Shown here: positions 35,188-45,436 of the stretch, piece after piece | Position numbering within the stretch: position 1 is the stretch's first letter | Layout: every line of letters begins with the position of its first letter | NCBI GenBank assembly: GCA_965205675.1 | Contig: OZ242186.1 | Location: 384,001 to 448,000, forward strand | DNA length: 64,000 nucleotides | Reading direction: 5' to 3' | Origin: Nitrosopumilus sp. | GTDB taxonomy: Archaea > Thermoproteota > Nitrososphaeria > Nitrososphaerales > Nitrosopumilaceae | The notes under the pieces: generated by a model | Database searches by the model: none | What the model was told of the DNA's origin: nothing | The model's input: the letters and a program-made list of their open reading frames with translations, nothing else | Position numbers and translations under genes: made by a program

Positions 35188-35199
35188 AGAATTTATATT
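35188..35199 (+). repeat. Putative attL core AGAATTTATATT
   Basis: Identical to 45425-45436; AT-rich, so a chance match is possible. Confidence 0.65.
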
Positions 35200-35342
35200 T
35201 GATATGAGCGATCTATGGTCAGAATTTTAACATGACGGAATAGCTTTATTAGGCATTGACACAATCAACAGAAAACATTGAACCACTCAGAGAACCAAAA
35301 CCACAAAAACAATTCAAAATTTAACAAAGTCCACAAACTACA

Positions 35343-35520
35343 ACCTTAGTGCAAATTTGCACTAAGGTCAACAACTAAACGACATAACAAGACGTTATGA
35401 CCATCAGTCTGGAACGCCCGAAGGGTGTTACGACTGAGGAAGGAACGTCTCAAAATACTCTAATCAAAAACAAAAAAAGGCTAGTTCAAAGACGAACTAA
35501 CTTGACTGTCAAACACTGTT
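35343..35520 (-). ncRNA. Structured non-coding segment (candidate ncRNA or single-strand origin)
   Basis: 26-bp perfect palindrome 35343-35368; long interrupted stem capped by a cUUCGg loop on the minus strand; further short hairpins. Confidence 0.45.
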
Positions 35521-35548
35521 ACCAGACATAAATCATAATTAAAAATCG

Positions 35549-35619
35549 TGGACCTGTTGGGAGTTGAACCCAAATCTCCTAGTTCTTACTTAGGTACGTG
35601 ACCGTCACGCTACAGGCCC
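35549..35619 (-). tRNA. Non-canonical tRNA: Ala-type acceptor (G3-U70, A73) with AAG anticodon
   Basis: GGGCCTG TA GCGT GACGGTC ACGT A CCTAA GTAAGAA CTAGG AGAT TTGGG TTCAACT CCCAA CAGGTCC A folds as a 71-nt cloverleaf. Confidence 0.75.
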
Positions 35620-35711
35620 ACAAAGTATATTAAAAAACACTAAACTAATAATGTTAGTTCTTACTTAGGTTAGGCCAACGCGCTAATCTCTTTTTTCTAT
35701 TATCAAAATAA

Positions 35712-37484
35712 TCATTGCACAACAAACACATCACAATTTGTGACATAATTTTTAATCTTCTTTGACTTGCTCCAGATCTGACAAGAATCAAAACCCATCT
35801 TTATCCACTTTTCACCGTTATGCTTTACCTGTTCAGGATGAGAACTGGTTTCAGACTGGGACTCTATCTCAATTGATATCACTTCTTTTGAATCATAGTC
35901 ATATGCTAACATATCCACTCTGTCATCGCCTTTCTGTTTTGCAATGCTTACAAATCTGCCAAAGGAAACATTATGATCAAATGCAGCAGTTGCAACATCA
36001 TTAATCCCCTCAGCTTGCCCAATTAGCGAATAGTCAGTTGGGAAATAAATTAATGATTTCTCACTCAGTCCGTAGATTTTTTCTGTCTGACTTCCCATCT
36101 TTCTGGTCCTTACAACTTTGATTTTTTTCTCATCATTCATCTCCTGCAATAGTACAGATATCACATCCCTATCGTTTGAGTCAATATCTGCAACTATCTT
36201 TGTAAGGTTTTTTGGATTATGATGTAAGGAACAAAGTATTAGCCACTCAGTCTTTGGTAGCGGTGGAACAACACACAAGTCAAGCCAGAAACTATCATCA
36301 AAATTAAATGAATCCTTGACCTGCTTTACTATGAGTTTCTTTGACTCGTTTTCTAAAAATTCATGTAAAGAATTATCTGACAGTACTTTATCCAGAGGCA
36401 TGCCAACCTGTAACGGTATCTCTTGTTTTTCCAAAATATGCATAAAATGAAATTTTGGTAATGATGCTAACTTTCTTTGTAACGTTTCAGATGCAAACAC
36501 GTCTTTTGAGAATATTGCGCCATCGGTTCCTGATACATTTCCAATATAGATATCACCAATGTTGTTTCTAATCTCTTTTTGGAACTCTGGTGTTATCTGC
36601 CCCAGGTCCTGATGTGCCAACCATACAAACAGACCGTACGCCCTTCCCTGAGACAGAATAATCTTAATAATCTCTGAATCCCTCAACACCTGGAACTCGT
36701 CTAGTATCAAAATTATGGGATTTTTCTCTTTTCTGTTTAACACATAAAACCAAATCTGCAGCAACAACACAAGTAACACCATGCTTGCCATGGATCCAGA
36801 AATACTTCGAGTTATATTCATAAATGAAATCTGTCCACTTTGCAAACAATCCCCTGGTTTTAGTGAGGAATACTTTGTGTTAAATCTCAGATTCAAAAAT
36901 GGATCAATAACAAAAGGCTCTATTCTGTTTAGGATTGGAAGCCAACTATCAGGCTTTAGGTCTGATAGTCCTTGTATTGCTTGCTCTAAATCCGATGAAC
37001 CAAACTTGTTCATCACAGCTTTTATTGATTCCAAATTTTTGTTCTTTGCCTGAGTTACAACCTTGTACAGGTCTGAAAATGTCGGAGTATCGGTATTTTG
37101 ATACAGATAAAAAAACAGAATCTTTAGAATTCTTTCTAACTGTATTCCCACCGATTGAGTATTGTACATTTCCCTAAATGAATCAATAATGTAATTTGTA
37201 TAGTTTGAGATTACAAGATCCTTGTTATCTGCAGAGTATGAAGGAAGCGATAAGAAATTCATTGCAAAGTTTTCACTTAACACATCAACATATCGAACCT
37301 TGTTGTTTTGGTAAAAACTAGAAGGAATGGTCTGAGATATCATTTTTGAATCATCCAGCTTTAAGTCAAAGTAGATAATTGCAGTACTGGGATCTTTTTT
37401 CATTTGTTGTGCAATTAGTTTTGAGATTAGTACTGATTTTCCTGAACCAGTACCGCCAATTAGATACTTGTGTAAGAGTGACAA
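35712..37484 (-). CDS. VirD4/HerA/FtsK-superfamily ATPase with C-terminal wHTH-like and PD-(D/E)xK-like regions
   Basis: Walker A GGTGSGKS, Walker B LILDEFQ, GRAYGL and AHQ motifs; tail RVDMLAYD...SIEIE. Confidence 0.85.
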   Translation of the reverse strand: MSLLHKYLIGGTGSGKSVLISKLIAQQMKKDPSTAIIYFDLKLDDSKMISQTIPSSFYQNNKVRYVDVLSENFAMNFLSLPSYSADNKDLVISNYTNYIIDSFREMYNTQSVGIQLERILKILFFYLYQNTDTPTFSDLYKVVTQAKNKNLESIKAVMNKFGSSDLEQAIQGLSDLKPDSWLPILNRIEPFVIDPFLNLRFNTKYSSLKPGDCLQSGQISFMNITRSISGSMASMVLLVLLLQIWFYVLNRKEKNPIILILDEFQVLRDSEIIKIILSQGRAYGLFVWLAHQDLGQITPEFQKEIRNNIGDIYIGNVSGTDGAIFSKDVFASETLQRKLASLPKFHFMHILEKQEIPLQVGMPLDKVLSDNSLHEFLENESKKLIVKQVKDSFNFDDSFWLDLCVVPPLPKTEWLILCSLHHNPKNLTKIVADIDSNDRDVISVLLQEMNDEKKIKVVRTRKMGSQTEKIYGLSEKSLIYFPTDYSLIGQAEGINDVATAAFDHNVSFGRFVSIAKQKGDDRVDMLAYDYDSKEVISIEIESQSETSSHPEQVKHNGEKWIKMGFDSCQIWSKSKKIKNYVTNCDVFVVQ

Positions 37485-37502
37485 TTGTAACTATTATACA
37501 AG

Positions 37503-43602: not shown

Positions 43603-43760
43603 TTTTTAGAAGCCTCCAAATTTTCAAGTTCACGACGAACCACAGAGGAAATATAATCAGAAACATTACGATAAAGAGAATCAGATTTCTGTGTCTCTTT
43701 TTCTATTCTGTTCACTAAATTTATTGGCAATTGAACAGGCTTCCAATTAGTTCGATTCAT
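43599..43760 (-). CDS. Ribbon-helix-helix protein (Cro-like position), 53 aa, not in ORF track
   Basis: MNRTNWKPVQLPINLVNRIEKETQKSDSLYRNVSDYISSVVRRELENLEASKK. Confidence 0.8.
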   Translation of the reverse strand: MNRTNWKPVQLPINLVNRIEKETQKSDSLYRNVSDYISSVVRRELENLEASKK

Positions 43761-43835
43761 GTAATAGTATTGTAATACACATTATATAAAAACTGTTACA
43801 ACACTATTACAACCTAACTTGTAACAAATTTATAA
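43760..43835. promoter_or_regulatory. Divergent promoter/operator region
   Basis: 18-bp inverted repeat (43760-43777 / 43794-43811, 2 mismatches) flanking TTATATAAA; extra TTGTAACA next to TTTATAA. Confidence 0.65.
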
Positions 43836-43871
43836 CATTTCAAAGGAAAAATACAAAATGTGCTTAAAACC

Positions 43872-44270
43872 ATGGTAAGAAAAAAGAGTAATTCAGGATG
43901 GAGACCGGTACAGCTTCCTAAAGATTTAGTAGACGAAGTAGAAAAAGTGATTGAAACATCAGAAGTTAAAAAAACAGGTGTTACAAGCATAAGTCAATTT
44001 ATTTCAAGAATCATAGATGATCATTTAGAATCATCCAGATTCTCTCATCAAAACACCTATGAGGATAAGGTAAGAATACTAGATAACAAAATAGGTAAAC
44101 TAGGAGATATTGTAACAATATTCCTAAAAGAAGAATTGAAGAAAGGATTTTGTGATTATTGTGAAAGTGAGAACTGTGTACACGTAAAGTACATGTGGGA
44201 ATTAGAAGATGTTGTTAAAATTTTGAAAAAAAGAGGTTTCCAATCACCATATAACGAACCATCAAAATAA
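43872..44270 (+). CDS. RHH repressor with C-terminal Cys/His Zn motif
   Basis: WRPVQLPKDLVDEVEK...SISQFISRII; CDYCESENCVH. Confidence 0.78.
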   Translation: MVRKKSNSGWRPVQLPKDLVDEVEKVIETSEVKKTGVTSISQFISRIIDDHLESSRFSHQNTYEDKVRILDNKIGKLGDIVTIFLKEELKKGFCDYCESENCVHVKYMWELEDVVKILKKRGFQSPYNEPSK

Positions 44271-44309
44271 AAGACATTTAGTTTCCAGGTTCCAGTCAAT
44301 ACAAGGCTT

Positions 44310-45377
44310 TTATTTTTTCAACTCAAACATCAGTTTTCTCATTTCATACTGAATCATTTCTTTAACTTCTTCTTTAGCAACGTGTGTTTTTTCCAATTCT
44401 TCATTACGTTTAGTTATTTTATCAAGCTCCAATTGCTTTCTTAGAGAACCATCAACGGTTAATTCGGGAACTGCTTTTTTGAATTCTTCAAACAATTGTT
44501 CAATAGTCGGGTCAAGATAAACATTATCCAACACAACAGTAACAGAATGACCCATCATTTTCTCTGCAAGTGAAATATTCAGGTCATGAGTAGTTTTCAG
44601 AATAGTATTAAATCGTTTTCTAAATCCATGATCAGCTTGTTTATTGTATCTCACACCCGTTTTGACCTGATTGATTCTCAATCCTGTTTTGTTGATAAGC
44701 AATCGTGTGATTTCTTGTAGTGATGATCTGGTACTAGGTTTGACCTTAGCAAATCCTACATTATACGATGAACGAAATGCAGGACTTTCAGGAGTTATTT
44801 TTTCTCCATCAGATTCTCTTTTCTGTATATAAGCATCAAACATTTGACTTGCTTCAGGTGTTAGAAATGTAGTATACTCATCAACAGTTCCTTCATAAAC
44901 CAGGACCGATTTGCAATCTTCAATCTGATTAATGTTTCTTAGTTTGATATCTTGTAATGCACCTATTCTAATTCCTGATGATGCGATAAAATGAATGAAT
45001 GTTTTAGTTCGTAATTTAGTCGCAAAAGAAACCATTTTAGCCACCTCTTCAGTAATCCATGCCTCACCGCCTGTCTTTTTTATTCTTGCAGGCTTAAGCC
45101 TGTTAATTTTACTCCATCTCAATTCTATATCATTACAGTCAAAAAATGCCTTCATTGACGCAATTGGTATATTTATTGAGTTGGGAGACATTGTTTTTTT
45201 AAGATACATAACAAAATCTTCCATCATAATTTGTAATTTTTCTTGAGGTATCGTTATTAATCTATCATAGTCTTCTATCTCAAAACATTTGAGAAATTTA
45301 TCCAAATGTCTAACATATGTTTTTCTTGTTTCTTCCGACTTGATAGAATTCTCAAAAATTAACATACTTCTTTGCAT
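44310..45377 (-). CDS. Tyrosine recombinase/integrase
   Basis: SGIRIG (R), HGFRK (HxxR), MMGHS and NVYL (Y) catalytic residues all present. Confidence 0.93.
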   Translation of the reverse strand: MQRSMLIFENSIKSEETRKTYVRHLDKFLKCFEIEDYDRLITIPQEKLQIMMEDFVMYLKKTMSPNSINIPIASMKAFFDCNDIELRWSKINRLKPARIKKTGGEAWITEEVAKMVSFATKLRTKTFIHFIASSGIRIGALQDIKLRNINQIEDCKSVLVYEGTVDEYTTFLTPEASQMFDAYIQKRESDGEKITPESPAFRSSYNVGFAKVKPSTRSSLQEITRLLINKTGLRINQVKTGVRYNKQADHGFRKRFNTILKTTHDLNISLAEKMMGHSVTVVLDNVYLDPTIEQLFEEFKKAVPELTVDGSLRKQLELDKITKRNEELEKTHVAKEEVKEMIQYEMRKLMFELKK

Positions 45378-45424
45378 GTCATATTATAAAAAACGGAACT
45401 ATTTTAACCAAATAATGTCAGGTT

Positions 45425-45436
45425 AGAATTTATATT
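45425..45436 (+). repeat. Putative attR core, overlapping a TATA-like box of the downstream gene
   Basis: AGAATTTATATT ends 24 nt before ATG 45461. Confidence 0.65.

Follow-up and report, generated by a model that had tools for sequence, protein, structure and literature searches.

An integrated, probably rolling-circle, plasmid-like element upstream of a pterin synthase gene in a Nitrosopumilus-type ammonia oxidiser

The locus described here lies in a 64-kb stretch of Nitrosopumilus sp. DNA (64,000 nucleotides of contig OZ242186.1, positions 384,001 to 448,000; referred to throughout as the window), in which a 12-bp direct repeat stands at either end of a block of 13 main open reading frames (ORFs). 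It raises the question of whether the segment between positions 35188 and 45436 is a discrete mobile element and, if so, how it is replicated and moved. A preliminary description made from the sequence had proposed an excisable rolling-circle element, possibly self-transmissible or a satellite. The analysis reported here favoured a cryptic integrated, rolling-circle, plasmid-like element of a Nitrosopumilus-type ammonia oxidiser, a reading to which a probability of about 0.8 was assigned. The single-contig host genome of 2.01 Mb carries a gene for an archaeal AmoA (386 bits), in agreement with the ammonia-oxidising host that had been proposed. All 13 main ORFs of the element are open, and 12 of them are on the minus strand.

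The 12-mer AGAATTTATATT was present in exactly two copies in the window, at 35188-35199 (attL) and 45425-45436 (attR); the chance expectation was 0.10, and two or more copies were found in 0 of 100 shuffles. The left flank carries a pterin-4a-carbinolamine dehydratase gene (34877-35155) and the right flank a 6-pyruvoyl-tetrahydropterin synthase (PTPS) gene (45461-46276), whose start codon is 25 nt downstream of attR. Empty sites were represented by 11 loci (L002-L012) from 11 of the 18 same-genus genomes that matched a PTPS query. In BLASTN alignments with all 11 relatives the left flank ended at 35199 and the right flank started at 45425, an overlap of exactly 12 bp, and the att site rebuilt from the left side of attL and the right side of attR corresponded to the relatives' empty sites, with the exact 12-mer in 10 and a single mismatch in one. 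Since the flanks abut with one copy of the repeat in each of these relatives, the insertion is 10,237 bp long and its ends are those originally proposed; the absence of the element from all 11 implies that it was gained recently. These results confirmed that the segment is a discrete, site-specific mobile element, inserted in the PTPS promoter region at a 12-bp site that is conserved among relatives. By inspection, the 12-bp core appears to hold a TATA-like sequence, TTTATATT, that the duplication would restore.

A tyrosine recombinase (integrase) of 355 aa is encoded at 44310-45377 on the minus strand. As had been noted, the gene is intact, and it was not split by the integration; its product matched PF00589 above the cut-off (34.0 bits versus 27.1, E 3.2e-8) and phrog_1 (E 1e-14). 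It is not an orthologue of XerA, XerC or XerD, scoring at most 55 bits against cut-offs of 220-335.

The protein assigned to replication, Rep, is encoded at 40651-42744 on the minus strand (697 aa; 695 aa in the database form). It combines a Cys-rich, putatively Zn-binding region with an HUH core (window positions 41485-42300) that lies between N-terminal (~150-aa) and C-terminal (~280-aa) extensions. Only seven close relatives, including Rep itself, were found among 5.8 billion clusters; a profile built from these seven sequences retrieved 1,042 cluster representatives at E≤1e-3 from a 1.8-billion library. In a 130-sequence alignment of the family the invariant residues (core numbering) were C76, C81, H166, H182, H184, Y225 and H229, which form the pattern HPxRF...PH(L/F)H...YLLSH; C45, C53 and C84 were nearly invariant, and a 75-sequence alignment agreed with this pattern. 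The AlphaFold model of the core, made with a deep alignment, had a mean confidence (pLDDT) of 90.4 and showed a beta-alpha-beta-beta-alpha-beta-alpha order, with the HxH motif (H182, H184) on the third strand (E177-189), the additional His on an adjacent strand and Y225 in the following helix (H216-227), where it aligns with the YALSH motif of RepA from the virus SNJ1. The full-length model (pLDDT 41) was unusable.

The relationship to SNJ1 was visible to profiles only, plain BLAST of Rep against SNJ1 having returned nothing. With hhalign, the 130-sequence profile matched SNJ1 RepA (AY048850.2) with a probability of 98.9% and an E value of 3.3e-17 over 207 columns, and the Cys cluster and the HxVxSxP, YH, PHxH and YxLSH motifs were all aligned. 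Foldseek comparison of the core with BFVD gave 28 matches at E≤1e-3; among the 50 matches listed, 45 were nameless and the five named ones were four microvirus replication initiators and one putative replication protein of a Vibrio phage, four of the five being within that threshold. Judged from its sequence, the Rep core is an HUH endonuclease homologous to SNJ1 RepA, which bears out the HUH assignment of the preliminary description. RepA is annotated in AY048850.2 as a rolling-circle replication initiation protein, and SNJ1 replicates by a rolling-circle mechanism dependent on this HUH protein, according to the available part of the report on its replicon (PMC12642351).

The Rep family is large, frequent in the Nitrosopumilaceae and invisible to standard family libraries. 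The profile matched 52 of 400 other Nitrosopumilaceae genomes (a tally that includes G233 and G122, both flagged as unpublished), mostly as core-only ORFs of 300-440 aa. When 75 family members were searched against Pfam, three gave a weak match to Zn_Tnp_IS91 (best E 9e-4), one matched Rep_1 and nothing else was found. A tblastn search with the Rep core found no match in phage or plasmid records, and the Rep alignment found no relative in IMG/VR; one locus in a metagenome-assembled genome (MAG) and one 3.6-kb metagenome fragment were matched by that alignment. An integrase homologue was located ~1 kb from Rep in six of 11 Rep loci for which 1.5-kb flanks were scanned, and two extended loci had the order integrase, small ORFs, Rep, one of them directly beside a tRNA-Arg gene. 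An integrase-Rep core is therefore a recurrent arrangement in other Nitrosopumilaceae.

Between the integrase and Rep lies a set of small genes that begins with a divergent pair. A 136-aa candidate regulator (43860-44270, plus strand), homologues of which stand beside Rep in L017 and L041, is transcribed away from a 53-aa gene (43599-43760, minus strand) that heads the leftward operon and is a paralogue of its N-terminus (34% identity, E 8e-9). The pair had been described as divergent ribbon-helix-helix (RHH) genes; the divergent arrangement and the paralogy were evident, but neither protein had a family match and the RHH label found no support in Pfam, NCBIfam, PDB sequence searches or hhalign. 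The operon continues on the minus strand with zf55 (43435-43602), a small Cys/His ORF whose start and stop overlap its neighbours, orf111 (43103-43438), a small Cys-containing ORF, and zf72 (42728-42946), a small CxxC...HxxHCH ORF that overlaps the start of Rep and has homologues adjoining Rep in L014, L017 and L018. The 'Zn-finger' label of these small ORFs is based on Cys/His patterns only. The arrangement at 40651-44270 resembles the replicon of SNJ1, a member of the Simuloviridae, at 1884-5589: in each, a divergent pair of small genes of DNA-binding type is followed by four to five small overlapping ORFs and by Rep, and the homologous Rep cores both have a Cys cluster preceding the HUH domain. 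In contrast to the element, SNJ1 is an episomal virus of 16 kb that encodes capsid proteins and its own packaging ATPase. Homology between the two could be detected for Rep alone; hhalign comparison of the small ORFs with the MazE/AbrB proteins of SNJ1 gave no support to the labels of these ORFs.

The same backbone was found over ~41 kb in one Nitrosopumilus MAG (G448), in the order tRNA-Met, integrase, zf55, zf72, Rep, orf61, tandem array, orf172, orf72a, orf339, ATPase, palindrome and tRNA-like gene. Protein identities were 29% for the integrase, 51% for zf55, 72% for Rep, 81% for orf61, 61% for orf172, 64% for orf72a, 62% for orf339 and 82% for the ATPase, and the 32-bp tandem array of the MAG was ~90% like the repeats of the window element. 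Twenty extra ORFs of this relative were scanned: nine were transposase genes or fragments (IS110, DDE, TnpB), and the remainder comprised peptidases, a histidine kinase, a gene fragment and ORFs without assignment, with no capsid or pore gene. Since this relative is larger and riddled with insertion sequences (IS), the window element represents a compact form. Elsewhere in the Nitrosopumilaceae, Rep and the ATPase were not linked. A fixed Rep and ATPase module across the family was accordingly rejected, because genomes with both genes carry them hundreds of kb apart or on different contigs.

The second protein that bears on the nature of the element is a 590-aa P-loop ATPase of the FtsK/HerA/VirD4 superfamily (35712-37484, minus strand). 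It carries a TrwB/TraG signature and exceeded the Pfam cut-offs for PF10412 (TrwB_AAD_bind, 29.3 bits versus 20.5), PF12696 (TraG-D_C, 23.9 versus 22) and PF02534 (T4SS-DNA_transf, 22.9 versus 20.1), consistent with the VirD4/HerA-type label given to it before; PF01580 (FtsK_SpoIIIE) was not among its Pfam matches. Against the curated NCBIfam models for TraD, TraG and VirB4 it scored at best 31.3 bits, with cut-offs of 366-686. An N-terminal membrane anchor is absent: the Walker A motif begins at about residue 10, and the one hydrophobic window of the protein (residues 224-251) lies well inside it. No other sizeable ORF of the element has such a window. The C-terminal ~200 residues gave a weak NCBIfam match at 446-481 and protein-atlas scores of only 0.79; by eye alone, this tail gave a nuclease- or winged-helix-like impression. 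A PADLOC mad8 match (E 5e-17) makes a defence-type role possible.

A large sequence collection held 34 relatives of the ATPase, the closest of which (69-87% identical) were on Nitrosopumilus-like contigs; the distant ones, of ~650 and ~1000 aa, included Sulfolobales proteins with TrwB, DUF87, T4SS-DNA_transf and FtsK domains. Among 72,556 plasmid records 18 matched, all of them archaeal (15 Sulfolobales, one Thermococcus and two haloarchaeal), and no match was found in 50,697 phage records. The alignments with pNOB8 and pTC covered 96-97% of the query at ~25% identity, the pTC homologue being a 1019-aa gene amid conjugal-transfer genes. Since those of its relatives that are annotated are all TraG-like and come from archaeal plasmids, for the most part conjugative plasmids of the Sulfolobales, and since it had no phage match, the ATPase belongs on sequence grounds to the conjugation-type TraG/VirD4 branch. 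The likeness to plasmids of the pNOB8, pTC and pARN/pKEF type extends to the near full-query alignment and the same Pfam signatures; in contrast, the Sulfolobales plasmid proteins are ~1000 aa long and stand amid transfer genes, whereas the window protein is shorter, anchorless and without transfer genes around it. Homologues with 31-36% identity were present in 63 of 400 Nitrosopumilaceae genomes. The idea that the long homologues mark conjugative islands was not borne out in the two neighbourhoods examined. Elsewhere in the host genome, two adjacent ORFs (621 and 850 aa) at 1,320,434-1,321,663 carry DUF87/AAA_10 (VirB4-like) signatures. Their presence weakens the idea that the element's ATPase complements an island of this genome that has none.

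Two candidate cis sites were noted. The origin-like repeat of the preliminary description proved to be a 157-bp tandem duplication (39555-39848; two units, 96% identical), a candidate origin or operator upstream of the genes from orf172 to the ATPase; each unit holds several (T/G)(G/A)CAACA-type repeats and a CCAAACGTTTGG palindrome. The non-coding left end (35200-35547) contains a perfect 26-bp palindrome (35343-35368) that is unique in the genome and is also kept, at 97%, in the MAG relative. From their sequence, either the 157-bp iteron region or the 26-bp palindrome could be the origin. Two conserved blocks of the left end (35363-35449 and 35467-35547) are common to a second host-genome locus at 541 kb.

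The RNA module that had been seen at the left end is a tRNA-like gene of 72 nt (35548-35619, minus strand; Rfam RF00005, 47.6 bits versus 29) with a class-I cloverleaf and, according to ARAGORN, the anticodon AAG. It is not shaped like a tRNA-Leu, since it lacks the long class-II variable arm and the four host tRNA-Leu genes are 86-88 nt, and it is unrelated to the genuine tRNA-Phe of the host. The family was found in 14 of 100 other same-genus genomes, with the anticodon AAG, GAG or GAA. The loci compared were L029-L035 and host positions 541,055-541,361; the cloverleaf was kept in all five homologues, compensatory changes having occurred at 5 of its 22 pairs. About 40 nt upstream of the gene the anticodon arm is present a second time (35656-35671, minus strand); this copy co-varies with the arm of the gene, carrying at each locus the same variant as its own tRNA-like gene. 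One idea is that the tRNA-like gene and the anticodon-arm copy serve other elements as att site or landing pad.

Related sequences were also seen elsewhere in the host genome. A 1,009-bp copy of window positions 35601-36609, 98.5% identical, lies at 358,055-359,062. It extends from the C-terminal half of the ATPase gene across the intergenic region into the tRNA-like gene, of which it holds the first ~19 nt, the homology ending in the D-arm; it may stem from a recent recombination or from a second insertion that was truncated. In the paralogous tRNA-like locus, at 541,136-541,280, a direct duplication of 36 nt (D-arm to anticodon stem) flanks a 35-nt insert, an arrangement that looks like the scar of an integration and a deletion inside the gene.

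The remaining ORFs, all on the minus strand, have homologues in part but few names. Directly downstream of Rep, here and in the MAG relative, is orf61 (40322-40507), which had been called SSB-like (single-stranded DNA-binding); neither Pfam searched to E 1, PDB phmmer nor hhalign supported that label, and no family match was found. The same is true of the small ORF orf57 (39867-40040), AbrB-like by eye only; the AbrB/CopG and SSB-like labels both found no support in Pfam, NCBIfam, PDB sequence searches or hhalign, and RHH, AbrB/MazE and SSB assignments of the small ORFs were accordingly dropped, nothing having come from Pfam to E 1, PDB phmmer or hhalign. Three chromosomal paralogues of orf57 (at 924,939, 1,298,412 and 1,541,561) are 50-60% identical to it, and the one at 1.54 Mb contains stop codons. 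Towards the ATPase follow orf172 (39022-39540), which is probably ~150 aa long from a Met codon at 39474 and had no match in Pfam, PDB phmmer or hhalign, and orf72a (38461-38679), small, conserved and without a family. The last, orf339 (37503-38522; 323 aa in the database form), is directly upstream of the ATPase gene both here and in the MAG and had no Pfam, PHROG or NCBIfam match. A protein-atlas lead (0.89) to DUF8128, which is fused to the N-terminus of bacterial homologues of the ATPase, was rejected at an hhalign probability of 0.2%. A third homologue of orf339 and a homologue of the ATPase had longest contigs of equal length.

An IS110-family remnant, ~125 bp of the 5' end, is located at 38740-38866 and has ~17 similar copies in the genome. 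The ~120-bp repeat recurs in the window at 57670-57786, and in the ~17 genomic copies it is followed by full transposase genes; the genome contains at least 10 transposase copies that are nearly full-length, and the element holds the end fragment only.

Over the element as a whole, Pfam named only two ORFs, the tyrosine recombinase and the ATPase. The PHROG matches were integrase families and, on the ATPase, two families of unknown function and a weak, P-loop-only match to a large terminase (phrog_2666, E 5.9e-4, residues 7-50), and NCBIfam scores were far under every curated cut-off. Searches with Pfam and PHROG and a hydrophobicity scan found no capsid, spike, mating-pore or multi-gene type IV secretion system (T4SS) gene in the element, as the preliminary description had remarked for capsid and T4SS genes, and no ORF longer than 111 aa has a terminal transmembrane segment.

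Taken as a rolling-circle plasmid-like element, the segment might function as follows. The integrase would recombine attL with attR and release a circle, and the divergent pair (43599-44270) would control the leftward operon that ends in Rep. Rep would then nick one strand of the origin, the candidates being the two cis sites described above, and prime rolling-circle replication through a 5'-phosphotyrosine link; Tyr371 (residues numbered as in the 695-aa form) is the predicted nicking residue, and His312, His328 and His330 would bind the metal. The ATPase may move or process the DNA of the element, in transfer, segregation or another role. Re-integration would restore the PTPS promoter, because the 12-bp core is duplicated.

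Several observations weigh against this reading. Public data comprised four runs from two studies that carry the element (X1, X2, X3 and X5), present as contigs only and none of them recorded as RNA. Neither the empty-site joint (35199/45437) nor a circle junction was present among the contigs of these runs, a null result that is uninformative on excision because contigs drop rare forms and the best run may be the source sample; one contig spans attR in the integrated state. In run X1 the depth of the element (~9-13) was near that of the flanks (~11-13), so that there was no sign of an amplified episome. Rep itself had no Pfam, PHROG, NCBIfam, PADLOC or PDB sequence match; Foldseek comparison of its core with the PDB gave nothing at E≤1e-3, returning generic ferredoxin-like folds, with the best HUH entry, the Rep of tomato yellow leaf curl virus, at rank 27 (E 0.08), and no origin or nick site was identified. 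The IS110 remnant and the 1-kb duplicate fragment elsewhere point to some decay or rearrangement. Finally, the N-terminal region present in the ~1000-aa plasmid homologues is missing from the ATPase, and none of 10 ORFs scanned beside two ~1030-aa Nitrosopumilaceae homologues was a T4SS gene.

In the samples behind runs X1-X3, contigs with a depth of ~1,000-1,900x, ~100 times that of the element, matched parts of 35190-35720 at ~93% in other contexts, and one of them begins at 35190, at the att core. A far more abundant relative in these samples thus carries a similar left-end and tRNA-like module.

Three other explanations were weighed. The coupling-protein domains of the ATPase and its TraG-like, mostly conjugative plasmid relatives raise the question of whether the element is a mobilizable or minimal conjugative one, in which the HUH Rep doubles as relaxase and the ATPase as coupling protein. 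A rolling-circle Rep combined with a coupling protein is the logic of bacterial integrative and mobilizable elements (IMEs), and a pore could be supplied by a co-resident conjugative island, the DUF87/AAA_10 genes at 1.320-1.322 Mb of the host genome being of possible relevance, or could be the element's own, as in the integrative and conjugative elements of actinomycetes (AICEs). However, the anchorless ATPase has no pore, pilus or VirB4 gene beside it in the element, the two families are unlinked in other genomes that hold both, and the two long ATPase homologues lack T4SS neighbours, so this explanation was considered unlikely. A more elaborate form of it was given very little credence: that the element is the first minimal DNA-transfer unit in an ammonia-oxidising archaeon and corresponds to IMEs and AICEs. 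Initiator and relaxase would then be one and the same HUH protein of the SNJ1 type; a reduced TraG-like ATPase without an anchor, its tail binding DNA or resembling a nuclease, would feed the nicked strand to a pore in trans or to vesicles, and other elements would use the tRNA-like gene, with its anticodon-arm copy, to land or recombine. That a single DNA pump suffices for self-transmission is likewise conjecture.

The lack of junction contigs, the depth ratio of roughly 1:1 and the IS110 remnant inside the element would also fit an immobilised relic, left by a single integration and since unable to excise or replicate, with its genes drifting or domesticated and the ATPase perhaps serving defence, as its mad8 match, its HerA likeness and the frequency of its family outside Rep-bearing elements would allow. 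Such a relic is distinctly unlikely, given that none of the 13 main ORFs is interrupted, the two 12-bp repeats have not diverged, stop and start codons still overlap in the operon, the 11 relatives lack the element and a second genome retains the backbone, with protein identities of 61-82%. A satellite or defective provirus, packaged into helper-virus particles or vesicles in the manner of pSSVx and pSSVi with the ATPase used for packaging, would be in keeping with a Rep of the type used by SNJ1 and with a replicon layout that mirrors that of this virus. Archaeal plasmid-derived satellites (pSSVx, pSSVi and SRCE) that combine a Rep with an ATPase do exist, according to the available part of a preprint (bioRxiv 10.1101/2025.02.15.638363), and share with the element a small size, one ATPase and the lack of a capsid gene. 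As far as that source goes, however, they carry the AAA+ ATPase of spindle-shaped viruses, whereas the ATPase of the window element is TraG-like and unmatched among phage records; its P-loop-only terminase match is the sole PHROG match in a structural category, the Rep alignment had no IMG/VR match and no helper virus was identified. A satellite was therefore judged highly improbable, and the pleolipovirus-like reading raised earlier did not hold, there being no membrane or spike proteins in addition to these results.

The cryptic, plasmid-like reading also agrees best with what has been described in this lineage: as far as the available text of a survey by Krupovic et al. (2019; PMC6563490) extends, 74 integrated elements were found in 20 thaumarchaeal genomes and most were 'cryptic integrated elements' (CIEs). 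Their att sites had a median length of 17 bp, with a minimum of 8 and a range of 8-26 bp for most, and 15 of 68 were intergenic; one element, NitAQ6f-E2, carries an SNJ1-like rolling-circle endonuclease, and many lack a nameable replication protein (PMC6563490). The element is therefore not of a type foreign to the lineage, as had been supposed. It shares with CIEs, in that account, a tyrosine integrase, a short direct-repeat att site, a size below 20 kb, an empty site in relatives and the lack of virus or conjugation hallmark genes, and with NitAQ6f-E2 in particular an SNJ1-type Rep, and differs from what is described there in the added TraG-like ATPase and tRNA-like gene and in the N- and C-terminal extensions of Rep. 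Beyond this survey, the literature search found no paper on rolling-circle integrative elements of Nitrosopumilus. What is new is the exact anatomy, with an empty site in each of the relatives compared, and the association of Rep with a TraG-like ATPase that stands alone and with a tRNA-like gene, although the supplementary tables of PMC6563490, a source available in part, may list this genome; the extent of the Rep family is also new.

The likeness to AICEs drawn in the preliminary description is one of overall logic. An AICE consists of an integrase, a rolling-circle RepSA and an FtsK-like Tra protein, and the element likewise joins an integrase, a rolling-circle initiator and one DNA-pump ATPase in ~10 kb. 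In contrast to AICEs, it has an SNJ1-type Rep, its ATPase gave no match to FtsK_SpoIIIE and its host is a single-celled archaeon without mycelial contact.

The SNJ1 replicon has reportedly been used in vectors, and the title of the study on it speaks of 'application'. Ammonia-oxidising archaea are still without genetic tools, according to the available part of PMC11897584. The element is a compact, delimited integrative replicon with a 12-bp attB that is exact in 10 of 11 relatives, an intact integrase and a Rep of the SNJ1 family, and its parts could serve as a practical basis for building integration or shuttle vectors. Since Rep proteins of the SNJ1 type are common, invisible to the family libraries and often found beside an integrase, many cryptic thaumarchaeal elements, including those without a nameable replication protein, may be rolling-circle replicons.

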